Below the pieces are notes generated by a model, which ran no database searches, had not been told where the DNA came from, and saw nothing but the letters and a program-made list of their open reading frames with translations. The position numbers and the translations under genes are program-made. DNA of 64,000 bases from Escherichia phage vB_EcoM_IME392. Shown piece by piece: positions 1 through 17,036 of the stretch. Each line of letters starts with the position of its first letter. The first letter of the stretch is position 1. Location: the sequence record MH719082.1; one strand, written 5' to 3'.

Positions 1-931
1 TCACATCCAGAGTTGATCCTGGTTGGAACTCTCGACCAACATCTTCCATTACGTATTCTAGAATACTGTGATCGCTATTATAACGAGAAGCAGCATCTTC
101 AAGAGTAGCGATGTAATGCTGGAAGTAGGTACGGATCTTATACCAGGAATTAAGTGATCCGAGATCAATCGTAGTTACCGGAGCTTCATTAATGTCGTCA
201 ACATAAGCTCGGATATTACTTACCTGCTTCTTGATGTTCGACACTTCCGGATACCAGTGGAGATCATCCGTCATCACCACATAGTTGCCCATATCTACTT
301 TGAGCATAGTTGCGATGATTTCCTGGATGATCGTGAACTCCACCAGATTAACGTTAGTCAATCCCCAGATTAGATCATTACTACGGTTGAATACCGTGCA
401 GTCCAGACCACCATTACGGTACTTAAACGATAGAGCAATGTTGCAGATCATATCTGCGGTATTGATGCTGCCGATGCTGTTTACCAAACCTACATCAGAA
501 TCACGGCTGGGATCGTGAATAGTAGCCACGCACTTACGGTTACCCAGGTCAGAACGGAGGCGGTCTGTTACAGTCTGGAGTTGATCGTAGTTATACAGAC
601 GCTCACCGTAAGCACCACGCCAGGTAACCATATCATCGCTAAACATCTTAGCGCGAGGAACCATAATCGACATCCAGTTATCGATTGCATAGCCACCAGA
701 CAGTACCCACAATACTTCCCCCATAATTCCGAGGATATTGTCTTTACGTTCTGGATGAGCCATCCAACGATTAATCGGATTACTTAACTCAACTACAGCA
801 TGACCGATGGATACTACCGCCGAAGAGTTAACAGAAGTTCTGGACTTCTGCAACTCACCAGCCTTATCCATAGTATTGATGCTGTTAACCAGGATTTCAG
901 TATTACTGTTACCGCGAATTACCGAGATCAT
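1..931 (-). CDS. Deoxypyrimidine-monophosphate hydroxymethylase / thymidylate-synthase-family enzyme (partial; 3' end beyond window start)
   Basis: Own translation of the minus strand from ATG 931..929 (overlaps upstream TGA as ATGA). The frame stays open to position 1. ThyA-family motifs are present: ...DLGNRKCVATIHDP..., catalytic-Cys region DMICNIALSFKY (T4 gp42-like rather than ThyA PCH), and LDCTVFNRSNDLIWGL (RSxD motif). It is absent from the ORF track because it runs off the window. Confidence 0.6.
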   Translation of the reverse strand, partial: MISVIRGNSNTEILVNSINTMDKAGELQKSRTSVNSSAVVSIGHAVVELSNPINRWMAHPERKDNILGIMGEVLWVLSGGYAIDNWMSIMVPRAKMFSDDMVTWRGAYGERLYNYDQLQTVTDRLRSDLGNRKCVATIHDPSRDSDVGLVNSIGSINTADMICNIALSFKYRNGGLDCTVFNRSNDLIWGLTNVNLVEFTIIQEIIATMLKVDMGNYVVMTDDLHWYPEVSNIKKQVSNIRAYVDDINEAPVTTIDLGSLNSWYKIRTYFQHYIATLEDAASRYNSDHSILEYVMEDVGREFQPGSTLDV

Positions 932-1662
932 TTAGAGTCCTTACGCACTGAATCAATAGACTTAACTGCAGAGGACAGTAACTCCAGACGGGCCTCCTGA
1001 GGGATCATACCAGATGGCTCATTCAGGATCATAATACCTTTACCAGTATTAGTAAAACGAGCTGTGATTGATCCAGGATACACCGGATGATTCAGAGTTA
1101 CAGAATTACACAACGCAGCACCGAATCGCTCCTCGTAGGCACGCATAGTTACCTTAAGGAGAGTAGAACTGACTGCTACAGAGTATTCCGGATCAACAAC
1201 ACGGAAGTTATTGTCCTCAATACTCTTATCCTTCGTATTGAAGAACAGAGTCATGTTATAATAATCAATAGACTCGTTACTGAGACGTAATGCCTCATCA
1301 CGAGCTTCCTGGCTAGCAAACATACTGTTATGCAGCAGGAAGTAAACGTACGAATCGAATACCGCACGATCACTGACGATCAACTCGCCACGATTGTAGG
1401 CATCCTTGAACATCTGAGTTCGCTGACGAATAAGACGCAGCTGGAACTCTACCGCTTCCATAGGATCTTCCACAGCTAAGCGCAGAATATCCATATGGGA
1501 TGTTACTCCCAGAGGAAGATGGTCACGAGTCTGTACTGCACGGAAGGTACATTCGGTTGATTCTTCCCAGCCTTTAGCCAGAGTAGATTTACCGGTACCC
1601 TGCGCACCAGACATAATTACACTGTAGCCTGGGATACTATAGTCTCTCATTATTCTCTCCAA
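928..1662 (-). CDS. P-loop nucleotide/nucleoside kinase (dNK-like); candidate hydroxymethyl-nucleotide or hydroxymethyl-DNA kinase
   Basis: Walker A GAQGTGKST. ELIVSDRAVFDSYVYF resembles the ERS-xxSDRYxF motif of dCK/dGK-type deoxynucleoside kinases. Start/stop are coupled to the hydroxymethylase gene. Confidence 0.55.
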   Translation of the reverse strand: MERIMRDYSIPGYSVIMSGAQGTGKSTLAKGWEESTECTFRAVQTRDHLPLGVTSHMDILRLAVEDPMEAVEFQLRLIRQRTQMFKDAYNRGELIVSDRAVFDSYVYFLLHNSMFASQEARDEALRLSNESIDYYNMTLFFNTKDKSIEDNNFRVVDPEYSVAVSSTLLKVTMRAYEERFGAALCNSVTLNHPVYPGSITARFTNTGKGIMILNEPSGMIPQEARLELLSSAVKSIDSVRKDSK

Positions 1663-1681
1663 TTAAGAATCTTTCCCACAT

Positions 1682-1713
1682 TTTAACAGCCTTTCAAGAC
1701 CCTAAAAGAGCGG
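1682..1713 (-). promoter_or_regulatory. Conserved promoter-like element (copy 1) upstream of kinase gene
   Basis: Plus-strand TTTAACAGCCTTTCAAGACCCTAAAAGAGCGG. On the transcribed strand this reads ...GGCTGTTAAAATG, an extended -10-like TGnTAAAAT, about 20 nt before the RBS. Confidence 0.5.
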
Positions 1714-1739
1714 ACTAAAAAGGCTGGTGTAAATGTGAA

Positions 1740-2711
1740 CTAGCTAAACTTATACCAGCGAGGTCTCATACGGATCTCGTGATTCAGTTTATGTAGTTTC
1801 GAGAATTCGCAGAATGAGTTGGTGAACATCTGACGAGTATAGAACCGCTCATCCTCCGGCATGAAGTGGAACCATTTCTCCGGCTCCCATGCATACCCGA
1901 AATGAGCACATATCTCTTTGATGTTCTGATACCACCATTCCACGAACATCTGGTAGCCGCAAGGAGGGTTCTGGTCATTAAGCATGTACCATACCCCATC
2001 CTGCGTCCCGGGTCCACATACGATAGCATCGTTATCTGTGTACGCAGTCTCTTTAGAGTAGGACATAGTTGCCCAGCATTGATATGCCATGAACGGACCT
2101 AATCCAGATACCTGTAACAGATGCTCGATGGCCTCGGTAGCGAACGGAGACTTCCATGCCAGTAAGATAGGATCACTGTAGGTCTTCACCAGATAGGCTC
2201 TGGCAGCTACACTGTACTTAATATCCTCTGGACATACTTCATTAGCCATCTTAACTGCTGTGCTAAGGAAGTAGGCATTTGATTGCTGTGGAGCAGTGAA
2301 CGGAGGACCATCCTCATAACGACGTAGCTCTTCACGACCCATGTTATGTATGTCGTCATAGCTCATCTCATAAAGAGGAAGGACTCTGCGGAAGCGATCC
2401 ATATATGAATCACCACGGTTTATCATCTGGAAGAGTACCACGTTAAGCGCCTTACTCTCCCAGCTTAGGGAATCGTTCTCCAGAATGTTCTTGATAGCCC
2501 ATACTGTTTCACGATCGTGCTTACGGAACACGTTAGTGAATTTAAACTTACTAATCCACTTATGTTCTGTCCACGGAGGAGGTAGCTTAAGTATCTCCTT
2601 CTTATAATAAACCTCAGTCCGCTCGCGGTTATACTCCACATACTCACGTAGCTCCTCGGGATTTATCATCCCGAGTAACCCGTCGAAGTGCAAACCTAAC
2701 GGTTTAGACAT
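1740..2711 (-). CDS. Hypothetical protein of the DNA-modification module (323 aa, Trp/Tyr-rich)
   Basis: ORF with an upstream promoter-like element and an RBS. Its position lies between the kinase and the BGT-like gene. No motif is recognised by eye. Confidence 0.45.
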   Translation of the reverse strand: MSKPLGLHFDGLLGMINPEELREYVEYNRERTEVYYKKEILKLPPPWTEHKWISKFKFTNVFRKHDRETVWAIKNILENDSLSWESKALNVVLFQMINRGDSYMDRFRRVLPLYEMSYDDIHNMGREELRRYEDGPPFTAPQQSNAYFLSTAVKMANEVCPEDIKYSVAARAYLVKTYSDPILLAWKSPFATEAIEHLLQVSGLGPFMAYQCWATMSYSKETAYTDNDAIVCGPGTQDGVWYMLNDQNPPCGYQMFVEWWYQNIKEICAHFGYAWEPEKWFHFMPEDERFYTRQMFTNSFCEFSKLHKLNHEIRMRPRWYKFS

Positions 2712-3790
2712 TAAAGAATACCTTCTTTGGTAAAGTAGTCTATTACTTCATCCTGAAGTTCTTGTGCGTAATCCTTGCGCAGATATAGATTCTCATACTG
2801 ATGTTTCAGCAGAGCATCACGATCTTTCAGTTTCTCTGCAATCTCCGCATTACTGGAGACGATCAGAGGAGCCAGTAGCTCTTCGGGGACGCCGCTCCGG
2901 ATTATTGTTCCAGCAGCATCTTTATCCACCAGCATCAGAGTACCAGAGCTCAGGTATTCGTAATAACGGTTAGGTGGGCTGGTATAGAACGAATTACTGG
3001 AGTTCCAGTCTTCGATAAGCAGTACCGCTGCATATTTAGCCACTTCATCCAGCATCTCTGACAGCTTAAACTTAGGCAGCCAGTTAATCGGAGCAGCAGG
3101 TCCCAGCCACTTACGTTCTTTAGGATCCAGCTCTTCCCAGTTTTCCTGCTCGTAGCCGTCAAATCCTGCAAGACCACCAGTATGTTTAGCGATGGACATC
3201 TGAGCTTTGTAGCTCGGCACCGACATAAACAGTTCCAGACCATCTTGCTGGGAGAAGTACTGAGTGAACTTATGGAAGCGGCCTTCACGAGCAGCACCGT
3301 AATACAGCAGGCTATTGTCCGGCTTATCTGACGATCCATAGCGAGGCTTACGACCAGGAACGTAGGTAAGACGGTTCCAGTTAATGTGATGATAGTTCTC
3401 TTCGCTAGGAGAATACTGATTACCCCAGGAAGTACGTTCAAATGCTGCTACAACTTTAAATACAGTAGCTGCGGTGATGTGTCTCCACTGCGGACCCTGG
3501 ATACGCATCTTAGACGAGTAATCCTGTCCAATCCAGTAGAACTTAGCTCCGACATCTGCCTGGTCTACCCAGAACTTATACATCTCGTCGCGGAACTTAC
3601 AGAAGGTAGGAACACCATTGATGGCGATAATCACGTCATATTTAGTGCCATCTTCCATAGCCTTAACGAACTTAGGAGTATCGTCCAACAGGTCAGCTTG
3701 AAGTCCGTAGGCTAACCAGGAAGCCAGAGTATTACTGGCAATGATGGATTTATCGCTGCATGGCGAAAAGTTAGTTACTGCAATCTTCAT
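2711..3790 (-). CDS. DNA beta-glucosyltransferase-like glycosyltransferase (T4 BGT-like, GT-B)
   Basis: N-term MKIAVTNF resembles T4 beta-gt MKIAIINMG. LLYYGAAREGRFHK matches T4 BGT DVIYGGSFRSGQRE. AVLLIEDWNSSNSFYTSPPNRYYEYLSSGTLMLVD matches BGT ALIIGDKNYNDNFITLRVWETMASDAVMLID. Length is 359 aa, against 351 aa for T4 BGT. RBS GGAGAAATTAAACATG. Confidence 0.6.
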   Translation of the reverse strand: MKIAVTNFSPCSDKSIIASNTLASWLAYGLQADLLDDTPKFVKAMEDGTKYDVIIAINGVPTFCKFRDEMYKFWVDQADVGAKFYWIGQDYSSKMRIQGPQWRHITAATVFKVVAAFERTSWGNQYSPSEENYHHINWNRLTYVPGRKPRYGSSDKPDNSLLYYGAAREGRFHKFTQYFSQQDGLELFMSVPSYKAQMSIAKHTGGLAGFDGYEQENWEELDPKERKWLGPAAPINWLPKFKLSEMLDEVAKYAAVLLIEDWNSSNSFYTSPPNRYYEYLSSGTLMLVDKDAAGTIIRSGVPEELLAPLIVSSNAEIAEKLKDRDALLKHQYENLYLRKDYAQELQDEVIDYFTKEGIL

Positions 3791-3815
3791 GTTTAATTTC
3801 TCCGTAGGCTGTCAC

Positions 3816-3848
3816 AATTTAACAGCCTTTTAGCTCATCAAAGAAGCG
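3816..3848 (-). promoter_or_regulatory. Conserved promoter-like element (copy 2) upstream of BGT-like gene
   Basis: CAATTTAACAGCCTTTTAGCTCATCAAAGAAGCG. Overlaps the 3' end of the GT2 gene. Confidence 0.5.
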
Positions 3849-4872
3849 AGTTAGCTGATGCCCAGCTCAGCCAGTTATCGTTGAGATCGGTCAGGTAGGA
3901 GTAATCCTTATTCAGACCGAATACAGTACGGTTAGTTCCGTCGAACTTCATTATACCAGCGCCAGGAGCTCTGATGATTGCATCTTCCGTAGCCAGACAA
4001 TATTCTTTCAAGTATTCCTGGATGTTGGGACGAATACGACGGAAGGAACTATCTGCCGAGTCATAGTGGAACATATCTGCGCAGTGCCACTGTACGTAGG
4101 ATTTATCCGGACGGCTGAGTAGTTCATTACGGGTAACCATATCTTTAGGAGAATATCCCAGCTTAGCTACAGTGACTTCGTGAATACCTCCACCATTAGA
4201 CGAAGTATCCATCAGCCAGTTTTCGTCCCAGTAGAACGAAGTACCAGTACCAGTTACCTGTCCAACCTTCCAGCCCATCGCCATACCTTTAAACAACAGG
4301 TAGCAATCTTCTCCTACGGTCAACTGTTGGAAGGTTATATCGAACAGCCAGAACATCTTCTCACTGGTCTTGACCATGATACCGAGGTCAGTGGCCGGAG
4401 CAGTGTTATTATGTGACTGACGATCGCATAGTTCAACAATCTTGTAGTTACGATTCTTGAAGCTACGGACGAACGCCATCTCAAACTCAGATCCCTCGAA
4501 GTCTATAACGGAACGGTCCAGATGGAAAATATTATCTGCGAACCAGACATCATCATCCACGAAGTAGCAGATGTCTGGACACCAGTTCTGATCCTCCATT
4601 AAAATCCATGCCTTATCAAGAGCATGAGCTCGGATTCTTCCGATTACCGGATTATCGTACTTAGGACGATGCCAGAAATTAAACTGCTCGTCCCCACCGA
4701 ACTGCTCTTCCAGAACTGCCTTATCTTCTTCGGAGGCATCCTGCATAAAGTAGAAGAAACGATACTCGATAGAGTCGTCAGTCTTCTTAGCATCTTTGAA
4801 CGACTGAATCTGACGGAGTACCGACTTCATACGATGATAGGTTGGGATGATAAAAGCCACTTTGGTAGTCAT
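3838..4872 (-). CDS. Family-2 glycosyltransferase (GT-A fold)
   Basis: N-terminal VAFIIPTYHR (GT2 IIPTYN-type motif) and DXD motif YFVDDDVWF. Confidence 0.65.
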   Translation of the reverse strand: MTTKVAFIIPTYHRMKSVLRQIQSFKDAKKTDDSIEYRFFYFMQDASEEDKAVLEEQFGGDEQFNFWHRPKYDNPVIGRIRAHALDKAWILMEDQNWCPDICYFVDDDVWFADNIFHLDRSVIDFEGSEFEMAFVRSFKNRNYKIVELCDRQSHNNTAPATDLGIMVKTSEKMFWLFDITFQQLTVGEDCYLLFKGMAMGWKVGQVTGTGTSFYWDENWLMDTSSNGGGIHEVTVAKLGYSPKDMVTRNELLSRPDKSYVQWHCADMFHYDSADSSFRRIRPNIQEYLKEYCLATEDAIIRAPGAGIMKFDGTNRTVFGLNKDYSYLTDLNDNWLSWASANSLL

Positions 4873-4878
4873 ATTTAT

Positions 4879-5490
4879 TTATCCAATTTGACGAACTAAG
4901 CGAAACCCTTCGGCGTACGGCCACTGGGCAGAATATCCACGTAAGGTGGCTAGAGCTAAGATACTCTGGGTATCTCGGTCTGACTTAATCTGGGAGTCGA
5001 ATCGTCCCATAGCCTGGCACTTACACTCAATATCGTCCTTATTCAGACGCTCGAAGTAATTAGGTTCCATCTGACCGAACTGGGTCAGGGACTCGGCATA
5101 CTCATATTCCAGGATAAGCCAGTTATACGCTCGGAGAGCTACACGAGCAGCATGATTAACTAGTTGATGGTCCTGGTGTAGGCTACTGAACGGAATATAG
5201 ACTACATCCGGCCTGATTTTAGCAACATAGTCCGCAATATCCTTAGCCAATTGCGGAATATCCTTCTGAGTCATACCATCGCCTGTGGAGGCATCGTTAC
5301 GCTCCAGGCAATGTACTTCTTTGATATTCGGATAGACACCGAATGCTGCTTCGGCTTCACCACGACGGGTCTCGTCCGGAGCAGTTACTTCGAGGATGAA
5401 AAATTGGTCGTCGCGGAATTTGCTCATAATACCTCCGCAACCCAGAATCTCATCATCGTGATGTGGGCTGATAATCAATCGTGACTTCAT
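4879..5490 (-). CDS. PIG-L/LmbE-family de-N-acetylase (GlcNAc deacetylase-like)
   Basis: Signature SPHHDDEILGCGG near the N-terminus and the second zinc-ligand motif HQDHQ. The 203-aa size is typical of MshB/BshB/LmbE proteins. Confidence 0.75.
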   Translation of the reverse strand: MKSRLIISPHHDDEILGCGGIMSKFRDDQFFILEVTAPDETRRGEAEAAFGVYPNIKEVHCLERNDASTGDGMTQKDIPQLAKDIADYVAKIRPDVVYIPFSSLHQDHQLVNHAARVALRAYNWLILEYEYAESLTQFGQMEPNYFERLNKDDIECKCQAMGRFDSQIKSDRDTQSILALATLRGYSAQWPYAEGFRLVRQIG

Positions 5491-5496
5491 TATTAA

Positions 5497-5532
5497 TCCT
5501 CGCTACACAAAAATGGGGTTAGGCCGTAGAGA
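5497..5532 (-). terminator. Hairpin + T-run (minus strand) between BCCT and PIG-L genes
   Basis: Minus strand: GGGGTTAGG-TCTCTACGG-CCTAACCCC followed by ATTTTTGTG. Confidence 0.5.
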
Positions 5533-5553
5533 CCTAACCCCGTACGCCTCTGA

Positions 5554-5588
5554 CACCTTAACAGCCTTTTAGGTCATCAAACAGGAGG
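5554..5588 (-). promoter_or_regulatory. Conserved promoter-like element (copy 3) upstream of PIG-L gene
   Basis: CACCTTAACAGCCTTTTAGGTCATCAAACAGGAGG. A hairpin/terminator follows at 5497..5532. Confidence 0.45.
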
Positions 5589-6959
5589 AGTTTCCTTAGC
5601 CAAGAATACTTTAGGTACAAAGATCTTGAGGAACCCGAATAGAATACACAATACCCCAATCAGTACCGGAACAGCCGATACAGCTACCAGAGTCTTCGTT
5701 ACAGTTACTACGTCACCACCTGCCCAGTTAAGTGCAGCAGCAACTACACCCATGCTTACAATCCAGAATACACGAGTTCTAGGAGCGGTCATGGACTCTA
5801 CCGTAATACCTGCTGAGTCATGACCTGTAATAAAGAACAGAATCACAGACACGAGGGTAATTACTGAGAATATCCATCCGCCTGGGAAATTAGCCAGAAG
5901 CTGGAAGATATCCTGAGCACCATGTTGCAAACCGGCTACACCGAATACGGTAAACCATACGTTACTGATAATGGTAGGGAACAGTACACATCCCAGGATC
6001 AGTTCGCGAATAGTACGGCCGTAAGAGATACGTGCCACAAACGCTCCGACGAATAATGCCCAACCTACCCAGGCTGCATAGTAAGCATAAGGCCAGCTAG
6101 CCAGCCATTGCTTCTCTTCAGCAGTACTGCCAATGTTTACCGACATAGGAATAATCTGGAGCAGATAGCTGCCAGAATAGGTGATGGTCTTCCAGAGGTA
6201 TTCAAAGAATGTACCACTTACAGCAACGAATGCCATAATAGATAGAGCTACGATTACATTATATCTGGATAACCACTTAACCCCACGATCGACACCAGTT
6301 ACGGCACTAAGTACAGTGCCCAGAGTCAGGAGTGCGATAATGGTGTAAGGACCAACATCCACACCAAGGAACTCTTTAAATCCAGAACTGATCGGGCCTA
6401 CTGCGTAGACGAACGACAGGGTTAAGCCTATGATGGTCGAGAAGAGTAAGCTTATCGTATTAAGGTTATTCAGAGTTCGGGACTTGAATAACTGATTAAG
6501 CGGACGGTCTTCACCACGTACATGCAGTAAGTACCCGAATGCCACCCCTACGACTGCATACACAGCCCATGCATTAAGTCCCCAGTCAAAGAAGGTAGTT
6601 ACCATATTCTGACGTTCGGACATACCCTCCTGATGATGGTACATAGGTTCGAGTACGCCATAATAAATCATGGATACACCCATACCGGTACTAAACATCA
6701 TAGAGTAATAGGTAAAGCGATTGTATTTCGGAGTACCTTTACCCAGCTTAATGTTACCATGTTTGCTGAATACAAAGAATGCCAGGAACGCCAGGAAGAT
6801 CAGCGAAGACCAGGTAAATATGAATCCATACTGAGATATAAATACAGACTTACTCCAGTCCATTACAGCACCAAACTGGGTGGGAGCAAACATAATGGCG
6901 AGTACAATACCCACCGTTACCAGCACCGTCCCCCAGGTAACTACCTTTGAATCGGACAT
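5577..6959 (-). CDS. BCCT-family (betaine/carnitine/choline) secondary transporter
   Basis: 460-aa polytopic membrane protein. N-terminal FSKHGNIKLG motif and the BCCT signature WPYAYYAAWVGWALFVGAFVARISYGRTIREL (cf. W..FYWAWW.SW.PFVG.FIARIS.GRTIRE). Confidence 0.85.
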   Translation of the reverse strand: MSDSKVVTWGTVLVTVGIVLAIMFAPTQFGAVMDWSKSVFISQYGFIFTWSSLIFLAFLAFFVFSKHGNIKLGKGTPKYNRFTYYSMMFSTGMGVSMIYYGVLEPMYHHQEGMSERQNMVTTFFDWGLNAWAVYAVVGVAFGYLLHVRGEDRPLNQLFKSRTLNNLNTISLLFSTIIGLTLSFVYAVGPISSGFKEFLGVDVGPYTIIALLTLGTVLSAVTGVDRGVKWLSRYNVIVALSIMAFVAVSGTFFEYLWKTITYSGSYLLQIIPMSVNIGSTAEEKQWLASWPYAYYAAWVGWALFVGAFVARISYGRTIRELILGCVLFPTIISNVWFTVFGVAGLQHGAQDIFQLLANFPGGWIFSVITLVSVILFFITGHDSAGITVESMTAPRTRVFWIVSMGVVAAALNWAGGDVVTVTKTLVAVSAVPVLIGVLCILFGFLKIFVPKVFLAKETPPV

Positions 6960-6962
6960 TGA

Positions 6963-7871
6963 TTATTCCTCAATTACGCCCTTAGCGATTAACTGGCGAC
7001 GGACGTATGCGTAGCCAGCAGGTGAAGTAGCGAGGACGATGTCCGCACTACGGAAGTTGGTTTCGATATAGAAGCACTCCTGAAGATCCCGAGTACAGAA
7101 GAGCTCAGTACTCATCATACCCTCGCGTACGTTACATGCATCTGCAACGAATTGCGCAACATCTTCGAAGTGGTCTACCGAATGACTATAGCCGAATCCA
7201 CGGGCATCAGTAGATATAACGTAGTTAGGGCAGTACGGAGTGAAGTCAGTATCTTCGTAGGATTTACCCTGGATAGTGAAGATATCTGCATAGTCCTTGA
7301 ACCCGCTCGGGCTAACCAGAAGATCCCAGGCAACTACCATACCATCGATAACATCTGCCTGAAGTACCAGAGAGGTAGTATATTCGTCCGGTGCCTTATC
7401 GCAGACCAAAATTGGGGAGTCTCCCAGAAGGTCCGACATAGTGCCCGCACCCTTGCCCCCGTGAACACGATCACGGCGTACAAACGCCTCCTGAGGCCTC
7501 TGGTACAGTCTGAACGACGGTACAATCAGCGAATCAGGCAGAGTTCCCAGGTTAGCTTCGGAGCGAAGGCAGGATAATTGGTCAGCTTTAGACCACGTAC
7601 TTTCGATAGCGTGCAGATCGTTACCGATTTTGGTATAGATATAGCTTTCCGGATTACGGCACTTACCCTGATTCAACTCTTCGATAACCGAGTCGAAATA
7701 AGGAAGTCGTACTGATCCCTCACGAGGAGCAGTTAACGCTACTGAGCCATGCTTGGTATGATCCTGATCAACTACCATAACCTGGTCCAGACTTACACCC
7801 ATCTTAAGAATCTGGGATAATGTAGCTGCCGTGTGATTAGTGCAGCCAATCATCAAATCTAACTTCTTCAT
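6963..7871 (-). CDS. Hypothetical protein (302 aa) of the modification module
   Basis: ORF tightly packed between the transporter and the methyltransferase, with a promoter-like element upstream. No confident family assignment. Confidence 0.45.
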   Translation of the reverse strand: MKKLDLMIGCTNHTAATLSQILKMGVSLDQVMVVDQDHTKHGSVALTAPREGSVRLPYFDSVIEELNQGKCRNPESYIYTKIGNDLHAIESTWSKADQLSCLRSEANLGTLPDSLIVPSFRLYQRPQEAFVRRDRVHGGKGAGTMSDLLGDSPILVCDKAPDEYTTSLVLQADVIDGMVVAWDLLVSPSGFKDYADIFTIQGKSYEDTDFTPYCPNYVISTDARGFGYSHSVDHFEDVAQFVADACNVREGMMSTELFCTRDLQECFYIETNFRSADIVLATSPAGYAYVRRQLIAKGVIEE

Positions 7872-7895
7872 TTTAATTCCTCAGTTAACTTGTAC

Positions 7896-7928
7896 AACCT
7901 AACAGCCTTTCGAACCCTAAAAAGAGCG
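7896..7928 (-). promoter_or_regulatory. Conserved promoter-like element (copy 4) upstream of gene 6963..7871
   Basis: ACCTAACAGCCTTTCGAACCCTAAAAAGAGCG. Confidence 0.5.
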
Positions 7929-7972
7929 AAATAATAGATATCTAGCCATCTCGTAAGATGGCTATGTATATA

Positions 7973-8713
7973 TTACTTTAATTCGGAGAGATCTGCGATC
8001 TTCACCTTAGCTGATACATCCCAGATTCCTTCACCAAATCCGGTATCTTCCAGCAGCTTAGGCACTTCACGTTTCTGTACCTTAGATTGCTCGTACTTAA
8101 GCAGAGGAATATTACCGGTCTTATCTGATTGATCCCACAGATAAGTAGCAGCACCGATGTTATCGAACAGTGCGAGATCTGGATTAAACTGGGTAAGGAG
8201 TCGGCAGTCCCAGTGAGACTTATGTTCCTCGAAAGGATTAGTTTCCGTGCCACGCTGACGATACTCATAGTTAGGAGTACCGATCACGATTTTAGCCTTA
8301 GACTGGAATAGCTTAGACAACACCATAAGCCCGTCTTCGCTATCCAGATGCTCCAACACATCCAGCCAGATAATAGTGCCGAATTTATCCAGCTCTTCAA
8401 TAGGAAGATCTTTCAACAGTTCAACGATATTGCAGATATAGATATCGCTATATACATTTACACTGCCTTTGATGTAGTCTTCGCAGATGTCCAGACCTGT
8501 AATCTGACCATCGAATCCTGCGTTACGGAGAGCAAGACCAATTTCTCCACGACCTAATCCCATATCCAGGATTGGCCCGGAGATAATTTCGTTACGGAGC
8601 ATCCATTGGAGAAAGTGCTTCTGGACTAAGTAGGAGGTGCCTCCGTTGCCCAGTGAAGCCTTCGTGACCTTAGTACCAGGAACGAAATTACACTCGATAT
8701 GTTTACCAAACAT
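7973..8713 (-). CDS. SAM-dependent methyltransferase (class I Rossmann)
   Basis: Motif I-like ILDMGLGRGEIGLAL (cf. VLDLGCGTG), and an acidic residue after beta-2 in GLDICED. Confidence 0.55.
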   Translation of the reverse strand: MFGKHIECNFVPGTKVTKASLGNGGTSYLVQKHFLQWMLRNEIISGPILDMGLGRGEIGLALRNAGFDGQITGLDICEDYIKGSVNVYSDIYICNIVELLKDLPIEELDKFGTIIWLDVLEHLDSEDGLMVLSKLFQSKAKIVIGTPNYEYRQRGTETNPFEEHKSHWDCRLLTQFNPDLALFDNIGAATYLWDQSDKTGNIPLLKYEQSKVQKREVPKLLEDTGFGEGIWDVSAKVKIADLSELK

Positions 8714-8736
8714 GTTCTGTCCTCATTAGTTTCGAC

Positions 8737-8770
8737 ACCTTAACAGCCTTTGGAGCCGTAAAAGAAGTGG
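8737..8770 (-). promoter_or_regulatory. Conserved promoter-like element (copy 5) upstream of methyltransferase gene
   Basis: CACCTTAACAGCCTTTGGAGCCGTAAAAGAAGTGG. Preceded, in the direction of transcription, by the terminator at 8781..8812. Confidence 0.5.
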
Positions 8771-8780
8771 TATTGTACAT

Positions 8781-8812
8781 ATTCAAAAATTAGGGTGGCC
8801 GAAGCCACCCTA
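8781..8812 (-). terminator. Rho-independent terminator after topoisomerase medium subunit
   Basis: Minus strand: TAGGGTGGC-UUCG-GCCACCCTA followed by ATTTTTGAAT. Confidence 0.7.
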
Positions 8813-8817
8813 GTTAG

Positions 8818-10065
8818 TTACAGTTTACCGATCATCTTCTGAATCATCTCGTCAGAAGTCTGATTCTCTACCTTAGCACGACGTTCTTGCAGATTAGCAA
8901 TGCGGTCGTCGTGATCTTTCTTACGTAGCATGCTGATGCTACGGCTAAGGCAGGAATTCAACACTTCCTGGGTAATACCGAGAGCTTTGATGATCTGAGC
9001 ATCAGACTTATCCTGCATAACCAGCTCGCCCACTTTAGGAAGAATCTGGTAAATCTCGATGTCTCGGTCAATCTTCTTAAGAGACTCAGTCTTATGGACG
9101 GAGAATGCCTGATTGTAGAGAGCCATCGTGACTGCAATCCAGTCGCGAATACCCATCGTCACCAGTTGACCATTGTAGGCTACCTGGATACGATGCGAGC
9201 GGTTCATGTAAGCAATATTCATGCATGCTTCGTGAACCTCGTCCATATCGATGGTCCTGATACGGGGAGCCTTCATTACTCGGATATAGATCTTATCCTT
9301 GGACATGTTCTTGACCAGGATCTTACCTTCTGATAACCACTTATTCAGGAACCCGATGCGAGGAGTAATTACCTCACCAGACCCGATGATGTCGATGGTG
9401 TCGGTATTGACGCGAGTTACCTTAAGGGTAAGGCCTAAGCGACCTACACCAGTTTCCCATAAGGACTTAAGGTCTGACTTACTCGGCACGATATCATACC
9501 CGTACTGAGCCTTAAGCAGATTATAATCGTCATGCTTGTAGGCTTCCAGCAGACTCTCGTAAGTGAATGCTGGGATACGGGACTGAATACCAGTAGCCCA
9601 TGAGAAGGTACCATACATCAGAGCATACGGAATAGGCACTGGAAGGTATGCGTATTCCATCTTCTCTTCACCTTCAACCTGCGGAACATAGTCCGCTAGA
9701 CCGAAGTAGTATTCTGCACGATCTTCGTTCAGGCCAACCTTCGTGTAACGAGGAGCAGCACCAGGAACTTCTTCCAGCAACTTAACGCCGAAAGATCCCT
9801 GACCATCAATAGCACCGATGCGAGCAAGACGGGAAATAGTCCCATCGATAGACTGGTCACCGAATGGGTGTAGCGACTGAGTTTCTGAGATAGCGCTCAG
9901 AGTCCCCACCAGCTTCCCACGAGCAATGCTATTCAGAGCCATGTAGATACGGCGCTGGGCAGGAATCAGGCCATCGATACCGGGAACTACACGATGAAGA
10001 GCACAATACACACTGTAGTCAGTGTAGTTCTTGGTGATGAATTCAGAAATCTTTACCTGTTCCAT
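8818..10065 (-). CDS. Type II DNA topoisomerase medium subunit (T4 gp52-like, GyrA-type cleavage domain)
   Basis: 415 aa, immediately downstream of the large subunit. The size and position match the T4 gene 39/52 arrangement. Confidence 0.65.
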   Translation of the reverse strand: MEQVKISEFITKNYTDYSVYCALHRVVPGIDGLIPAQRRIYMALNSIARGKLVGTLSAISETQSLHPFGDQSIDGTISRLARIGAIDGQGSFGVKLLEEVPGAAPRYTKVGLNEDRAEYYFGLADYVPQVEGEEKMEYAYLPVPIPYALMYGTFSWATGIQSRIPAFTYESLLEAYKHDDYNLLKAQYGYDIVPSKSDLKSLWETGVGRLGLTLKVTRVNTDTIDIIGSGEVITPRIGFLNKWLSEGKILVKNMSKDKIYIRVMKAPRIRTIDMDEVHEACMNIAYMNRSHRIQVAYNGQLVTMGIRDWIAVTMALYNQAFSVHKTESLKKIDRDIEIYQILPKVGELVMQDKSDAQIIKALGITQEVLNSCLSRSISMLRKKDHDDRIANLQERRAKVENQTSDEMIQKMIGKL

Positions 10066-10067
10066 AA

Positions 10068-12053
10068 TTACTCCTTAAACAGACCGTAGTCTTCTAACAG
10101 TTGGCGACGAGCACGAGATGAGTACAGCAACTTACGAGCGGCATCGAGATGCTCTTCATTATCATCGTAGGTTACCTGGATAAGACGGCGAGATTTCGAG
10201 TTAATGATGAATTGCTCAGTTTCTTCTTCGGTATATGACCCGAGTCCCTTACGACGTTCAACATAGCACTTATCGAAGTCGATCTTATCCTTCTCGTCAG
10301 CGTAGTAGAACTCGGTCTTCTTACCATTCTTAACTACATAGAACGGAGCTTCGAGTTTATACAGACGACCATCTTTAACCAGCTCTGGAGCATGGATAAG
10401 GAAGATTGAGCTAATGAGGTTACTGATGTGCTGACCATCAACATCAAGGTCGGTCATAATGATGATCTTACCGTAACGAGCCTTATCTATGTCAAACATC
10501 TGGCCCATACCACACCCGATAGTATTGATGATCGCCAGCAGCTCTGGGTTATTCACGAATTCCATGATATCCATGGAAGCCGAGTTACGCATCTTACCGC
10601 GAAGAGGAAGCACCGACTGATACTCATTACGCAACTTGATGATATTACCAGAAGCAGACGGACCCTCTGTGATGAACAGCTCACGAAGATCCCAGCGGTC
10701 GGACGGAGATTCGTAGATCTTCGCCATGTCACCATCCATAGCGGCCTTACGGTGATCATCACCCATCACCAGCTTAGACTTAATGAAGTCCATGTTGGAG
10801 AGTTTATTCAGGCTAGCTTTGTAAGCCAGGATCTTGGCAATCAGAGCATCAAAGAATTGCTTATTCTTCTCGTATACCAGGCTGAAGTAGAATGTGAGCT
10901 GACTCAGGCATTCTTTCTCGTAGAAGAAGTACTCGCCATAATAGTCGTAATCGTTGATTTGCTCATCATTCAGCATCAACTTATTCTTAGCCATGATTTC
11001 CCAGTCGCTCCAGGACATACCGAGGCCAGTTAACTTCTCCTTAGTCTGCGAGGAGAATGCTGTACGATAGCTGGAGAAGACGTTAGTGAACACGATCAAT
11101 CCCAGCTTAGCATCACCAACAGTGATAGCAGAGTTAACTTTATTCAGCATACCGCCGAGCGCTCTCGTGACCAGCTTCTCATGCAGACCACCATGCGGGT
11201 TATTGATCAAGTTGATCATGTCTACATGGGAGTAGGACATATTCTTATCAGAGTAGCCCAACTCACCAGAGAAGGTCAGACGATCGTTGAACGAGAACTC
11301 GTACTTGACTGTAGTATCGAGGAACAGCTTCTCATTCTCTGCAACATCACGACGAAAATCCCAGGTAGCCAGAGCTTCACCATTAACGGTGATAGTTGCA
11401 TCACGACCAATCAGGGAGATCTTCAGAGGAACAGTATCCACATCAGACCAGATGCTGCGGTACAGAGTCGCATCAGGCACCATGAAGACTGCTGTGGAGA
11501 AGTCGGTAGCCTTTAACGTCTCGAGCACTTCGTCTGGGAAGCCATCGTCGTGAAGATCATTCAGATCATTGATCACTCCATCGATTTCCATAACACCACG
11601 GCGGAATCCGAGGACATAGAACTGACCTGGCTCCATAGGGATGTGTGCCTTATCTCCCTGCATTACGCGACGGATTACAACGAATCGCTCGGACACTGCG
11701 TTAACAGCGGAGCTACCTACGCCATGGGTACCAGAGGTAATTTCACGGTTATCGCCCAGCTTAGAGCCAGCATGCAGATCTGTTACAGTAGAGAACAGAA
11801 TAGATTTAGACGGATCTTCCGGATCAGCGTAGATAGGAATACCACGTCCGTTATCGGTAACCAACTTGTAGGCTTCACGGTTAATGATCTGCACTAGGTT
11901 AGCATAACCATTAAGCAGCTCGTCCTCCGCATTATTGATTATTTCCTGGAGAGGATGAGTGTAGTTAATCGGGTCACCGAGATACATGGATACGTTCTGA
12001 CGAACGTTATCAGGGTAACGCAATCTTGTGATTTCAATAGCATGTTCTGACAT
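10068..12053 (-). CDS. Type II DNA topoisomerase large subunit (T4 gp39-like, GyrB-type ATPase + TOPRIM)
   Basis: GHKL ATPase motifs EIINNAEDE, DNGRGIP and GTHGVG. TOPRIM IIMTDLDVDGQHI. Confidence 0.85.
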   Translation of the reverse strand: MSEHAIEITRLRYPDNVRQNVSMYLGDPINYTHPLQEIINNAEDELLNGYANLVQIINREAYKLVTDNGRGIPIYADPEDPSKSILFSTVTDLHAGSKLGDNREITSGTHGVGSSAVNAVSERFVVIRRVMQGDKAHIPMEPGQFYVLGFRRGVMEIDGVINDLNDLHDDGFPDEVLETLKATDFSTAVFMVPDATLYRSIWSDVDTVPLKISLIGRDATITVNGEALATWDFRRDVAENEKLFLDTTVKYEFSFNDRLTFSGELGYSDKNMSYSHVDMINLINNPHGGLHEKLVTRALGGMLNKVNSAITVGDAKLGLIVFTNVFSSYRTAFSSQTKEKLTGLGMSWSDWEIMAKNKLMLNDEQINDYDYYGEYFFYEKECLSQLTFYFSLVYEKNKQFFDALIAKILAYKASLNKLSNMDFIKSKLVMGDDHRKAAMDGDMAKIYESPSDRWDLRELFITEGPSASGNIIKLRNEYQSVLPLRGKMRNSASMDIMEFVNNPELLAIINTIGCGMGQMFDIDKARYGKIIIMTDLDVDGQHISNLISSIFLIHAPELVKDGRLYKLEAPFYVVKNGKKTEFYYADEKDKIDFDKCYVERRKGLGSYTEEETEQFIINSKSRRLIQVTYDDNEEHLDAARKLLYSSRARRQLLEDYGLFKE

Positions 12054-12085
12054 AATTTCTCCGGTCAGGTTTAAATAAGCTCACA

Positions 12086-12120
12086 CAGTTTAACAGCCTT
12101 TGGAGGCCTCAAAGGAGCGG
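12086..12120 (-). promoter_or_regulatory. Conserved promoter-like element (copy 6) upstream of topoisomerase large subunit
   Basis: CAGTTTAACAGCCTTTGGAGGCCTCAAAGGAGCGG. Confidence 0.5.
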
Positions 12121-12752
12121 TTCACGAACAGGACTAAATCCTCTACTCTGGACTTATCTACCCACTCTGTTCTTCCTGGTAAGGACCTATTAGACTCGGA
12201 GAAGAAAGATAATCTCACTTTTGATTCTAAATCCACTCCCTCTTCTTTAGGCATCTCGATTAAGATTAGCGGGGTCATACCGATGCCTAATCCATCTAAT
12301 CTTCTTTCTATATTTGAAGTAATCCCATATTTAGCATTTCCAGATTGGTCCAATACGATATAAAAGACCACCTTACCTTCTGGAATGGTAGATATCGCTA
12401 GGTTCTTAATCACAGAGTTAGCGTATTCAGGATTCAACCATCGTTTATGATTTGAAGAGGATATCACTTTAGACATCTTCTTCTGGTAGTTCTCATCTTC
12501 CCACATTTTAATGTTGCGATTAGTCATGGAAACAGACCTAGCCCTGGTGGCGCATTCTGATCTTCCACATGTAGGACGATAGCCCTTAATCACGGATTTA
12601 AAGGAGCAGGGTTTTCCACATGAACATATTTTTACAGGAAAGAATTTTAAGTAATATTCATGCGGAGTTAAGCCATGAGATTTGGCATGGGAGGGAAATG
12701 CCTGGCCTCTTACTTCGGCAGAGCATATTCTACATTTATGATTCATAATCAT
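12090..12752 (-). CDS. Zn-finger / GIY-YIG-like endonuclease (homing-endonuclease-like)
   Basis: Several CxxC pairs at the N-terminus. The C-terminal VVFYIVLDQSGNAKYGITSNIERR fits GIY-(x9-11)-YIG...R. It sits directly upstream of the topoisomerase genes, a known homing-endonuclease hotspot in T4-like phages. Confidence 0.4.
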   Translation of the reverse strand: MIMNHKCRICSAEVRGQAFPSHAKSHGLTPHEYYLKFFPVKICSCGKPCSFKSVIKGYRPTCGRSECATRARSVSMTNRNIKMWEDENYQKKMSKVISSSNHKRWLNPEYANSVIKNLAISTIPEGKVVFYIVLDQSGNAKYGITSNIERRLDGLGIGMTPLILIEMPKEEGVDLESKVRLSFFSESNRSLPGRTEWVDKSRVEDLVLFVNRSFEASKGC

Positions 12753-12990
12753 ACCACTTAGTTAATTCAAGGAAGTCATCCATCGCGGAATTAAAGAAGG
12801 AGTCTATCTCCTTAGCCATTTCCTTGGCGAAGCGACCAGATTCGGTCGACATCACTACCTTAGCCTCGCCCATAGGGTGCTTGACCACTTCGTAGATTCC
12901 CAGATTTGGGTAATACACTATGCTGGATAGGAAGTTTACAGACTTAACCACCACAGTATTGAATTGAGTTACTTCCACCATCTTAATCAT
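12736..12990 (-). CDS. Hypothetical small protein
   Basis: 84-aa ORF in an operon-like array. No recognisable motifs. Confidence 0.35.
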   Translation of the reverse strand: MIKMVEVTQFNTVVVKSVNFLSSIVYYPNLGIYEVVKHPMGEAKVVMSTESGRFAKEMAKEIDSFFNSAMDDFLELTKWYDYES

Positions 12991-13301
12991 GCTTCACCTA
13001 CCATTTTCAGGAAGGTGTCTACCATAATCGGGTCGAAGCTATCGACATCGGCAGTATGCATCAGGGCGGAGAATAATGAGTTAGCCCAGTGCTCCGTAAC
13101 TCCGTCTTTACCTTCGAGAATTACGCAGTACTGATCTTTGGAAGGATGGTACTGAATCTTAGCAACATTGCGATTCGAGGTCAGGACCAAAATCTTGGTT
13201 CCCGAGATAGTGAAGATTCTAGACATATAATAATCCCAAATTAGAAGATCCGCAGCGGGAACGCCCCGCCACCCAAAAGAACGGGCTTTAGGAGGTCCCA
13301 T
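12987..13301 (-). CDS. Hypothetical small protein (true start may be internal)
   Basis: ORF follows a terminator hairpin. Start codon uncertain. Confidence 0.35.
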   Translation of the reverse strand: MGPPKARSFGWRGVPAADLLIWDYYMSRIFTISGTKILVLTSNRNVAKIQYHPSKDQYCVILEGKDGVTEHWANSLFSALMHTADVDSFDPIMVDTFLKMVGEA

Positions 13302-13342
13302 AAATCGTTTTATTTTTCATTATTTGAAAAATAAAATAATCT

Positions 13343-13368
13343 ACACAAAAATGGGGTCCGAAGACCCC
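13343..13368 (-). terminator. Rho-independent terminator after Mre11-Rad50 gene
   Basis: Minus strand: GGGGTC-UUCG-GACCCC followed by ATTTTTGTGTAG. Confidence 0.65.
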
Positions 13369-13373
13369 ATCAA

Positions 13374-16139: not shown

Positions 16140-16993
16140 GCCGACTCCAGTATCTTAGCCGTAACGGATCTGTTATATTTACCCAGTACACCATGGAAGT
16201 ACGGAGGGAATCTGAATCCTGGACAGAACTCTTCCAGAGTAGGTAGGATGCGCTGTTGCATCTGTACCTTAGACTCCTGTTCTTTAATGATGCTGTGGAC
16301 TTCTGTATCGGTTAGGATTCTGTCTAGACGCATCAGTTCCATATTAGAACGAATACGGAATTCAACCGATTGGCTTAAGCTACCATCTTTGTAGGCATTA
16401 ATCGCCTCCTTAACAGTGCTTAATCCAGTAGCCACTCCTGGAATGTTGTCGGAGCCGTCCCCGACGATGGCTTTGTAGATGAGATAATCCTTATGATCGT
16501 CCAGATCGTAGGTCTTCATTAACCAAGGAAGATCCACTAAACCATCGTCAGGATTTAAGACACAAGTATTCTCATTAATTGATAAGTACCAGTCACGGTC
16601 ACGAGAATGCAACATAACCGGACGTCCTGAATGAGCATAGTAGTAGCCTAAATCATCGGCTTCCACACCAGACACCTGGATACACTTAATACCCAATGCT
16701 GGGAAGATCTGCTCATGAAGTACATTCATAGCAGCCCACAATGCCTCAAAGCTCTCGTCATACTCACGATTAGCTTTATACTCCGGATTCTTATCTTTAG
16801 GCCTGTATCTCCACTTGCCTCGATCATATAGCATGATTAGCTCGGAGTTATATCCGTCTTCCTTAATCAACTTCGCTACACTACCAATAGTGGAGGAGAC
16901 CGTAGGACCTAAGTCCTGGGACTTACCGGCTGCGAACCAGTTACGAAGAGTCAGCCACTGACAATCGACTGGTATTAACGGGATGTCATTCAT
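16136..16993 (-). CDS. RNase H / 5'-3' flap endonuclease (T4 rnh / FEN family)
   Basis: Motifs YKANR and GVEADDLGYYY (cf. Pol I 5' nuclease GYEADD). Confidence 0.7.
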   Translation of the reverse strand: MNDIPLIPVDCQWLTLRNWFAAGKSQDLGPTVSSTIGSVAKLIKEDGYNSELIMLYDRGKWRYRPKDKNPEYKANREYDESFEALWAAMNVLHEQIFPALGIKCIQVSGVEADDLGYYYAHSGRPVMLHSRDRDWYLSINENTCVLNPDDGLVDLPWLMKTYDLDDHKDYLIYKAIVGDGSDNIPGVATGLSTVKEAINAYKDGSLSQSVEFRIRSNMELMRLDRILTDTEVHSIIKEQESKVQMQQRILPTLEEFCPGFRFPPYFHGVLGKYNRSVTAKILESA

Positions 16994-17007
16994 AGTCTAC
17001 CTAGAGC

Positions 17008-17036
17008 GTCAAAAATAAAGGGACCGAAGTCCCTTT
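17008..17036 (-). terminator. Rho-independent terminator after SSB-like gene
   Basis: Minus strand: AAAGGGAC-UUCG-GTCCCTTT followed by ATTTTTGACG. Confidence 0.7.

Follow-up and report, generated by a model that had tools for sequence, protein, structure and literature searches.

A candidate thymidine sugar-hypermodification cluster with its own membrane transporter in Escherichia phage vB_EcoM_IME392

What does a phage make with a hydroxymethylase, a kinase, glycosyltransferases, a de-N-acetylase and a membrane transporter encoded side by side? This question is raised by positions 1..8713 of a 64,000-nt stretch of Escherichia phage vB_EcoM_IME392 (MH719082.1), here called the window, to which all coordinates refer unless another locus is named. 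Inspection of the open reading frames (ORFs) bore out that nine contiguous genes occupy the minus strand at this place (Table 1), and the cluster is both real and rare. The sole close relative in the phage collection, EP_H11 (OP688485), is 93% identical at the DNA level to the first 8.8 kb, and seven of the nine genes are annotated there as hypothetical. In the original prediction, which was made from the sequence alone, the cluster was thought to decorate hydroxymethyl-pyrimidines in DNA with sugars. On balance, the evidence presented below favors a rare type of sugar hypermodification of thymidine, based on 5-hydroxymethyl-deoxyuridine (5-hmdU), for which the phage supplies its own membrane transporter. 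The limits 1..8713 proved too narrow; a YfbR-like HD nucleotidase and further glycosyltransferase candidates are located outside of them.

Table 1. Features of the cluster and of a distant glycosyltransferase candidate in the window (dUMP, deoxyuridine monophosphate; 5-hmdUMP, 5-hydroxymethyl-deoxyuridine monophosphate; BGT, beta-glucosyltransferase; SAM, S-adenosylmethionine).
Feature	Position	Strand	Evidence or remark
ThyA-family enzyme, probable dUMP hydroxymethylase	1..931	-	PF00303 6e-12, over the curated cut-off; phrog_3676 2.6e-70
P-loop kinase, probable 5-hmdUMP (nucleotide) kinase	928..1662	-	AAA_28 2e-9; phrog_2107 1e-11
Promoter-like element	1684..1694	-	upstream of the kinase gene
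PF18723 HMUDK_hel (formerly aGPT-Pplase1) helical protein	1740..2711	-	3.2e-35, model positions 5-277 of 281
Remote T4 BGT homologue (GT-B), candidate 5-hmdU DNA glycosyltransferase	2711..3790	-	hhalign probability 95.9%
Promoter-like element	3820..3830	-	upstream of the BGT-like gene
Probable GT-A-fold glycosyltransferase (tentative)	3838..4872	-	IIPTYHR and DDD motifs; weak Foldseek matches
PIG-L/LmbE-family zinc de-N-acetylase	4879..5490	-	PF02585 6.7e-14; phrog_11796 2.5e-21
Promoter-like element	5559..5569	-	upstream of the PIG-L gene; followed by a terminator-like hairpin, 5515-5541
Phage-clade BCCT secondary transporter with degenerate Trp box	5577..6959	-	PF02028 1e-92, residues 7-446
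Orphan 302-residue enzyme, tentatively an ATP-grasp-like ligase/kinase	6963..7871	-	motifs; low-confidence model
Promoter-like element	7900..7910	-	upstream of the 302-residue gene; hairpin 7943-7964 before the element
Class-I SAM-dependent methyltransferase (weak call)	7973..8713	-	Methyltransf_25 4e-5, under the curated cut-off
Promoter-like element	8741..8751	-	upstream of the methyltransferase gene; terminator-like hairpin 8791-8812 before the element
GT32-like (DXD) glycosyltransferase candidate	24349..25140	-	Gly_transf_sug 5.5e-4, under the cut-off

The identity of the modified base is suggested by the ThyA-like enzyme and its surroundings. The reading frame loses its C-terminal ~47 residues at the start of the window, and its ATG (931-929) overlaps the stop codon of the kinase gene. 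Pfam upheld the predicted membership of the ThyA family (Table 1). The full-length orthologue in EP_H11 is 29% identical to gp51 of PaMx11, a phage with a reconstituted 5-hmdU-derived modification (PMC8989533), as compared to 19% for T4 gp42 and 20% for E. coli ThyA. Near the base-specificity position, where the alignment is uncertain by one residue, the enzyme has an Asn, as in PaMx11 gp51, and the Asp of gp42-type hydroxymethylases, which are specific for deoxycytidine monophosphate (dCMP), is not present. The catalytic Cys sits in a D-x-x-C context that resembles gp42, as originally noted. Beyond the window edge, the ThyA gene of EP_H11 adjoins a gene for a YfbR-like HD nucleotidase, in the same manner as gp51-gp52 in PaMx11, and the rest of the EP_H11 genome encodes one dUTPase and two dCTP-deaminase-like (DCD-like) proteins. 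Because of the ThyA similarity, the Asn, the HD neighbor, the dUTPase and DCD-like genes and the PF18723 protein described below, the modified base is most likely 5-hydroxymethyl-uracil (5-hmU), as a thymidine replacement, and not hydroxymethyl-cytosine. The prediction of a cluster built on hydroxymethyl-pyrimidine DNA modification is thus supported, with uracil favored over the T4-type cytosine option.

The gene at 1740..2711 was initially classified as unknown and was proposed for comparison with aGPT-Pplase profiles; this comparison gave the protein a name, since it matches PF18723 over almost the entire model. The family also takes in PaMx11 gp50 and a protein conserved in Ackermannviridae, and is a hallmark of 5-hmdU (thymidine-hypermodifying) phages. 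A control Pfam scan showed that aGPT-Pplase2 has been renamed ADDT (PF18724, PaMx11 gp46) and that PF18723 is now HMUDK_hel, which explains the “aGPT-Pplase” gene that the Delarue laboratory ascribed to EP_H11 and IME392. M6 gp55, the counterpart of the PF18723 protein, was dispensable in vitro (PMC8989533).

The neighboring gene encodes a P-loop kinase, as predicted, but its similarity to the dNK family is weak (0.012). Homologs adjoin ThyA-like and/or HD genes in the Acinetobacter phage Ab1-TPeters, in the Ralstonia phage RP13 and in three metagenomic contigs, which together with two other comparison loci (L024 and L029) are referred to by their labels (L004, L025 and L028). The alternative suggestion that this protein is a 5-hmdU DNA kinase was not borne out, and we rejected it as the primary reading. 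The window kinase falls in phrog_2107/AAA_28 and in neither of the known 5-hmdU DNA kinase families, and PaMx11 gp49, a 5-HMUDK homolog that corresponds to gp54 of M6, a proven kinase, belongs to phrog_800 and weakly to PF18748. Moreover, Ab1-TPeters has the kinase although no PF18723 homolog is detectable across its whole genome, and L028 holds a window-type kinase plus a separate PF18747 “5-hmdU DNA kinase 2”. Because of these two contexts, the protein is best read, by inference, as a nucleotide-level 5-hmdUMP kinase.

To look for the canonical enzymes that act on 5-hmdU in DNA, we scanned four sets of ORFs against Pfam: those of the module, the larger ones on the minus strand between 8.8 and 29.2 kb, those of the EP_H11 flank, and the 23 larger ones in the remainder of EP_H11. 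Neither a PF18748 (HMUDK_HMUD1) or PF18747 (HMUD2) DNA kinase nor a PF18724 protein (ADDT, formerly aGPT-Pplase2) was matched among these ORFs. On the plus strand (31.6-64 kb, half of the window), where the genes are apparently structural, the search was made by tblastn with the PaMx11 proteins; for ADDT, tblastn with PaMx11 gp46 gave nothing under E 0.1 in the whole window.

A candidate for the sugar-transferring step is encoded next to the PF18723 gene. The protein was originally described as alignable to the T4 beta-glucosyltransferase, and hhalign corroborated this over 302 columns that span residues 1-351 of both proteins (E 5.8e-9). In this comparison, the window protein and two relatives were aligned to a seven-member BGT family alignment (28-100% identity); the T4 b-gt query was 100% identical to the T4 record. 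Residues D90, R168, R275 and E278 align with D100, R191, R269 and E272 in T4 BGT, which are the catalytic base (D100) and the residues that bind uridine diphosphate (the other three). HMMER missed the relationship because it is too remote: the Pfam matches at E<=0.1 consisted of a weak match to Glyco_trans_1_2 and no T4 BGT model, and no BGT chain was recovered from the PDB sequences at E<=10. By profile comparison, the protein is confirmed as a true relative of T4 beta-glucosyltransferase. A 364-residue gene product encoded after the BCCT gene in L028 was also considered as a BGT-like relative and was rejected, as hhalign with the BGT-like profile gave no signal.

The transporter belongs to the BCCT family, as originally proposed, but the family signature that it was said to carry is degenerate. 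A regular expression for the Trp box ([GSDN]-W-T-[LIVM]-x-[FY]-W-x-W-W) matched the E. coli BetT at NWTLFFWAWW; in its place, SWPYAYYAAW is present in both the phage protein and its L004 ortholog. Among the NCBIfam models, that for glycine-betaine BCCT scored best (244 bits, with a cut-off of 650), followed by BetT (155 bits), and the copy in EP_H11 is annotated as a choline uptake protein. We rejected an identity as a choline (BetT) transporter, given that the leading glycine-betaine model is far under its cut-off and that the Trp box is degenerate. The protein is 42% identical to the products of the L025 and L028 genes and 25-30% identical to those of BCCT genes in other records of the phage collection, most of which are unannotated fragments or host-like stretches. 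In Vibrio phage 1.031.O (L013 9917-11822), the gene for a BCCT-like membrane protein with 25% identity to that of the window immediately precedes a gene of the LicD family (phosphocholine transferase); here, too, a phage transporter is paired with an enzyme of group transfer.

The gene upstream of the transporter encodes a 302-residue protein for which no match was found in Pfam, PHROG, NCBIfam or the PDB sequences. It is one of three orphan proteins in the cluster, together with the BGT-like and the GT-A-like proteins. A word-indexed search of 5.8 billion proteins retrieved four homologs of the 302-residue protein, three of the GT-A-like and two of the BGT-like protein. These were all from phage-like contigs, and no host surface-polysaccharide operon with homologs of the orphan proteins was found in this set. 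Scans of PHROGs and NCBIfam agreed with the Pfam family calls and added nothing for the three orphans, and HMMER searches of the PDB sequences with these proteins, or with small profiles built from them, gave nothing significant. An exhaustive search of 1.84 billion representatives extended the 302-residue family to nine members, all nine without a Pfam match. The family has invariant residues E256, E270 and R274 and an invariant motif F-x-R-x5-G-x-K; at position 272, eight members have N and one has D. The AlphaFold2 models of this protein and of the GT-A-like protein are poor because the alignments are shallow, with only 2-4 relatives each. The model of the 302-residue protein has a predicted local distance difference test (pLDDT) score of 39.5, and ATP-grasp enzymes (RizA, CPS, PsnB, Ddl and TTL) are overrepresented among its Foldseek matches, at non-significant E-values (best 0.05). 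The motifs resemble ATP-grasp by eye, and we regard a putative ATP-grasp-like function as a lead only.

Comparison of gene orders connected the transporter to the other genes. The 302-residue gene is located directly upstream of the BCCT gene in L004, L024, L025 and L028, and upstream of an MFS sugar-type transporter gene (3e-37) in L029. In L004 and L024, where the 302-residue homolog is ~71-72% identical, the order is that of the window from the 302-residue gene to the polymerase gene (seen in full in L004, since L024 stops inside the GT-A-like gene). In L025 (~30% identity), the order is 302-residue homolog - BCCT - PIG-L, followed by topoisomerase II and then by kinase - ThyA - HD. The cluster in L028 (~30% identity) begins with kinase - ThyA - HD - primase-like - 302-residue homolog - BCCT, continues with unknown - GT4 - cupin - cytidylyltransferase-like - unknown - ADDT (3e-8), and ends with inositol-1-phosphate-synthase-like - PF18747 (6e-16) - PF18723; here, the pair is thus enclosed between kinase-ThyA-HD and ADDT/PF18747/PF18723. 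The homolog in L029 is 24% identical in the family alignment and 28% identical over 225 residues in tblastn. Ab1-TPeters, a relative of the lineage, has no 302-residue homolog, and the slot after topoisomerase II is occupied by two GT4 glycosyltransferase genes.

Hence, the 302-residue/BCCT pair, mostly accompanied by PIG-L, is kept down to ~30% identity and is always found beside kinase-ThyA-HD. We conclude that orphan enzyme and transporter belong together functionally as a conserved pair, usually with PIG-L, inside 5-hmdU clusters, and that the region by topoisomerase II is a variable modification island of this phage lineage. The conserved linkage and the exchange for an MFS transporter in L029 tie the transporter to the pathway, and the embedding of the pair in 5-hmdU clusters argues against a role in the host envelope. 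The prediction that a phage-encoded transporter is part of the cluster is thereby strengthened, its gene adjoining the 302-residue gene in five contexts of falling similarity. L025 (1635-2468; 9312-11708) also has a FolD-like methylene-tetrahydrofolate dehydrogenase/cyclohydrolase gene near its cluster, and an intein with an HNH domain within the medium subunit of topoisomerase II.

The remaining enzymes of the cluster are candidates for tailoring the sugar. The GT-A-like protein was predicted to be a GT2 glycosyltransferase; the IIPTYHR and DDD motifs are present, but the family support is weak, with no Pfam match and no PDB sequence match with HMMER. In its AlphaFold2 model (overall pLDDT 44.7), the first 110 residues (pLDDT 70-85) are arranged as beta-alpha-beta-alpha-beta-alpha-beta, followed by DDD at 106-108, and the top Foldseek matches are mostly GT-A enzymes with weak scores (best E 0.0076, none <=0.001). 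A paralog is present in L004 and L024. Based on the motifs and the model, we tentatively consider it a GT-A-fold glycosyltransferase. The PIG-L assignment is firmer, with 52.9 bits against a cut-off of 28.2 for PF02585 and with the predicted PHHDDE and HQDH motifs in the sequence; the protein also has a weak similarity to BshB1, and its orthologs are encoded after the BCCT gene in L004, L024 and L025. The predicted class-I SAM methyltransferase contains an ILDMGLGRGE motif, but all models scored beneath their curated cut-offs; it has a weak UbiG-like similarity.

The methyltransferase gene is situated at the variable end of the cluster and is absent from L004 and L024, in which the slot contains genes for GT32-like, GT-A paralog, phosphatidylserine (PS)-decarboxylase-like (2e-7), ATP-grasp_3-weak and CxxCxxCC proteins. 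The PS-decarboxylase-like gene (PF02666, 2e-7; L004 3750-4406, L024 3602-4258) and the ATP-grasp_3-weak gene hint at another type of tailoring, by attachment of an amino acid and subsequent decarboxylation. The GT32-like protein encoded at 24349..25140 in the window is 29% identical to the product of a 260-residue gene inside the L004/L024 cluster and possibly acts in the same pathway. In EP_H11, a GT-B candidate was identified outside the window (L019 20415-21383, corresponding to EP_H11 43414-44382; Glycos_transf_1 2.2e-5), and one other of the 23 scanned ORFs has a weak MptE-like match (5e-4). The whole genome may thus encode four or five glycosyltransferases.

The expression signals of the cluster are shared with the surrounding genes. 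The sequence AAAGGCTGTTA occurs in 15 exact copies as compared to 0.95 expected, exclusively on the minus strand (1684..29184), and is embedded in a conserved stretch of ~35 nt, CCGCTCTTTT-N(8-10)-AAAGGCTGTTAA-NN-TGT, upstream of early/middle genes. The promoter-like element that was claimed for most genes in the cluster is therefore real, but only five of the nine genes have their own copy. It is not specific to the module because it is spread over the whole leftward early/middle region, and the replication genes share it with the module genes. No enrichment of sigma-70-type promoters was observed (16, as compared to 17.2 expected). A protein that resembles the beta' subunit of RNA polymerase is encoded in EP_H11 (L019 6677-8245), and the element may thus serve as the promoter of a transcription apparatus specific to the phage. 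Three terminator-like hairpins (Table 1) break up the cluster into short units of transcription, and the 302-residue and BCCT genes make up one of them. Upstream of the PIG-L gene, the element precedes a strong terminator-like hairpin (11 pairs, then a T-run), which is the opposite of the order in the other intergenic regions; such an arrangement may serve in attenuation or form a structured 5' leader.

The gene families, the homology to T4 BGT, the conserved linkage and the lack of a canonical kinase and transferase among the scanned ORFs were observed directly, and from these we propose the following chemical steps and final base. The ThyA-like enzyme, to judge from its family and gene order, would convert dUMP to 5-hmdUMP, which the adjacent P-loop kinase would phosphorylate towards 5-hydroxymethyl-deoxyuridine triphosphate, while the products of the YfbR-like nucleotidase, dUTPase and two dCTP-deaminase-like genes would jointly bias the nucleotide pool, so that the phage polymerase would put 5-hmdU in the DNA instead of T. 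The BGT-like GT-B enzyme would then use a nucleotide-sugar of the host to glycosylate 5-hmdU within the DNA at its hydroxymethyl group, yielding an O-glycoside like that in base J, with the PF18723 protein probably aiding access to the base. The GT-A-like enzyme, and perhaps also the GT32-like and GT4-like enzymes encoded elsewhere, would lengthen the sugar, and PIG-L would strip the N-acetyl group from a hexosamine to expose an amine. The BCCT transporter and the 302-residue enzyme, possibly an ATP-grasp-type ligase, would import a small molecule and attach or activate it, and the methyltransferase would cap the finished structure. The most specific version of this scheme, in which the orphan enzyme couples the imported molecule to the de-N-acetylated amino sugar on BGT-glycosylated 5-hydroxymethyl-uracil in DNA, is speculative, and we consider it rather doubtful as it stands.

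Several observations weigh against the proposed sugar pathway. PF18723 usually goes together with the route over 5-phosphomethyl-deoxyuridine (5-PmdU), which a direct O-glycosylation would bypass. The triad of 302-residue, BCCT and PIG-L genes in L025 has no BGT-like or GT-A genes nearby, so that the substrate of PIG-L may be the imported molecule and not a sugar bound to DNA. The degenerate Trp box gives no hint of the cargo of the transporter. Both the GT-A and the ATP-grasp calls depend on low-confidence models (pLDDT 44.7 and 39.5) with non-significant Foldseek E-values, and alignment of the 302-residue family with hhalign gave <1% for E. coli DdlB and GshB and no signal for the ATP-grasp_3-weak protein of L004. 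T4 BGT is inactive on matched 5hmU:A (PMC5741180), and an action on 5-hmdU would therefore be a new specificity for the BGT family. Finally, the modifications in SP-15, YerA41 and Carin-5, phages with related polymerases, contain phosphate (PMC12686479; bioRxiv 10.1101/2025.03.26.645540), which keeps a phosphate route alive. In that case, the kinase and the PF18723 protein would form a non-canonical 5-hmdU DNA kinase that gives 5-PmdU, on which either an imported amine or alcohol, the cargo of the BCCT transporter, would be substituted, possibly after deacetylation by PIG-L and activation by the 302-residue enzyme, or a phosphodiester bridge to sugars would be retained, as in the three phages just mentioned. 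This fits with the location of the PF18723 gene directly upstream of the kinase gene both here and in L004, with the Pfam name of the family (helical domain of 5-hmdU DNA kinase), with the absence of adjoining BGT-like and GT-A genes from the L025 triad, and with SP10 gp186, a fusion of a kinase and an aG/PT-PPlase of the M6 gp51 (ADDT) type and not of the PF18723 type (PMC5889632). Nevertheless, we find such a route unlikely, since the kinase is of the phrog_2107/AAA_28 type and not PF18748/phrog_800 or PF18747, occurs in Ab1-TPeters without PF18723, and is accompanied in L028 by a distinct PF18747 DNA kinase, and since no ADDT was detected in the scanned ORFs of the window, by tblastn with gp46 or in the larger EP_H11 ORFs.

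The cluster could also have a split role, with only the ThyA-like, kinase, PF18723 and BGT-like proteins modifying DNA and the other proteins altering the sugars of the host envelope or the uptake of osmolytes. Osmoprotection is the normal task of BCCT transporters, the copy in EP_H11 has been annotated for choline uptake, enzymes of the PIG-L and GT-A types are often found in pathways for surface glycans, and in Vibrio phage 1.031.O a BCCT-like gene adjoins a gene for a LicD phosphocholine transferase. However, the 302-residue/BCCT pair was only found in phage-like contigs, amid replication and 5-hmdU genes; no host operon with these genes was retrieved from the 5.8 billion proteins; the early/middle promoter element is common to these and the replication genes; and the Trp box, which binds quaternary amines, is degenerate. 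This makes a division of tasks distinctly improbable. The lowest probability is assigned to a T4-type cytosine pathway, in which a dCMP hydroxymethylase, a deoxynucleoside monophosphate kinase and a beta-glucosyltransferase would produce glucosyl-hydroxymethylcytosine. The homology to T4 BGT and the gp42-like D-x-x-C context are in agreement with such a pathway, but the greater similarity of the ThyA-like enzyme to PaMx11 gp51 than to gp42, the Asn in place of Asp, the PF18723 protein as a marker of thymidine-modifying phages, the dCTP-deaminase-like genes and dUTPase that feed dUMP, and the PaMx11-like placement of the YfbR-like nucleotidase all speak against it, and we regard it as very improbable.

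The sugar hypermodification of thymidine that we favor resembles several known systems in part. In the 5-hmdU-derived thymidine hypermodification of ViI, M6, PaMx11, PhiW-14 and SH-Ab 15599 (Lee et al. 2018 and 2021; PMC5889632, PMC8989533, PMC13458397), the ThyA gene is likewise found next to HD nucleotidase and PF18723 genes; the order is similar to that of gp49-gp52 in PaMx11 (kinase - PF18723 - ThyA - HD), and the post-replicative tailoring genes of the ViI/M6/PaMx11 type are also clustered with the hydroxymethylase genes. The difference is that no PF18748/PF18747 DNA kinase or ADDT was found here among the scanned ORFs, and that the BGT-like GT-B, GT-A-like, PIG-L, BCCT and orphan enzymes take their place. 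The glucosyl-hydroxymethylcytosine system of the T-even phages likewise combines a hydroxymethylase, a kinase and a DNA glycosyltransferase, with full-length BGT homology, but the base is here most likely 5-hmU, and there are extra tailoring enzymes and a transporter. Base J of kinetoplastids (beta-D-glucosyl-hydroxymethyluracil) has the O-glycoside linkage to 5-hmU that is predicted for the phage; it is made by JBP dioxygenases, for which thymine within DNA is the substrate, and by JGT, described as a GT-A enzyme. In the phage, by contrast, 5-hmU would come via the nucleotide pool, and the transferase candidate is a BGT-family GT-B enzyme.

The most closely comparable modifications are those of SP-15, YerA41 and Carin-5, which have sugar-bearing hypermodified thymidine and belong to the SP15-like polymerase group (PMC12686479; bioRxiv 10.1101/2025.03.26.645540). 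In YerA41 and Carin-5, the thymidine carries a linker, phosphate and several sugars, and the glycan of Carin-5 includes an N-acetylhexosamine, with a deacetylase gene beside the glycosyltransferase genes (PMC12686479; bioRxiv 10.1101/2025.03.26.645540). The Delarue laboratory listed EP_H11 and IME392 among the phages with an SP15-like polymerase, predicted from the aGPT-Pplase gene that their DNA is T-modified, and detected no 5-HMUDK in them (bioRxiv 10.1101/2025.03.26.645540; PMC12686479); beyond these two mentions, no literature on the DNA chemistry of IME392 or EP_H11 was found. IME392 has in common with SP-15, YerA41 and Carin-5 the polymerase-defined group and several glycosyltransferase genes. 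It differs in the proposed base, as the SP-15-type base has a dihydroxypentyl linker plus phosphate, and in the transporter, the 302-residue enzyme and the BGT-like enzyme, which are not reported for these three phages; no SP-15, YerA41 or Carin-5 record was among the matches listed by tblastn with the kinase, PF18723, PIG-L and BCCT proteins.

The modification was originally called previously undescribed, which needs to be qualified. In view of the predictions for EP_H11 and IME392 and the glycans in YerA41 and Carin-5, a sugar-decorated thymidine is not new in this phage group. Our search of a literature library returned no description of a BGT-family enzyme in a 5-hmdU context, of a conserved transporter/orphan-enzyme/PIG-L unit, or of a cluster without the canonical kinase and transferase.

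Other features of the leftward region were also noted. Genes for tRNA-Met (CAT) and tRNA-Arg (TCT) are located on the minus strand in the early region (26105..26180 and 26650..26725), and, of the whole window, only the tRNA-Met gene matches many unrelated phages at the DNA level. One 921-residue ORF (13374..16139, minus strand) contains a phosphoesterase domain of the Mre11 type, a Rad50/SbcC-like ATPase and a zinc hook. The leftward and rightward gene blocks diverge at 28330..29195 (minus strand), where a gene for a YpsA/SLOG-family protein adjoins that for a small protein with HHH_8 (a helix-hairpin-helix of the polymerase-X type).

If the product is confirmed, the cluster would represent a new branch of phage thymidine hypermodification, in which the known chemistry of kinase and amino-acid transferase gives way to glycosyltransferases, a deacetylase and a metabolite taken up from outside. 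Such DNA is likely to be resistant to restriction enzymes and may impede sequencing, in a similar manner as for YerA41 and Carin-5. A BGT-family enzyme that is active on matched 5-hmU would be a useful reagent for the mapping of 5-hmU. If the coupling of the imported molecule to the amino sugar is true as well, the modification would be a base-J-like glycoside with an imported acyl or amine group, the first DNA modification to depend on virus-encoded nutrient uptake, and its transferase the first BGT-family enzyme active on matched hmU:A. The pair of transporter and orphan enzyme offers a compact, testable unit that ties the composition of viral DNA to uptake by the host cell.

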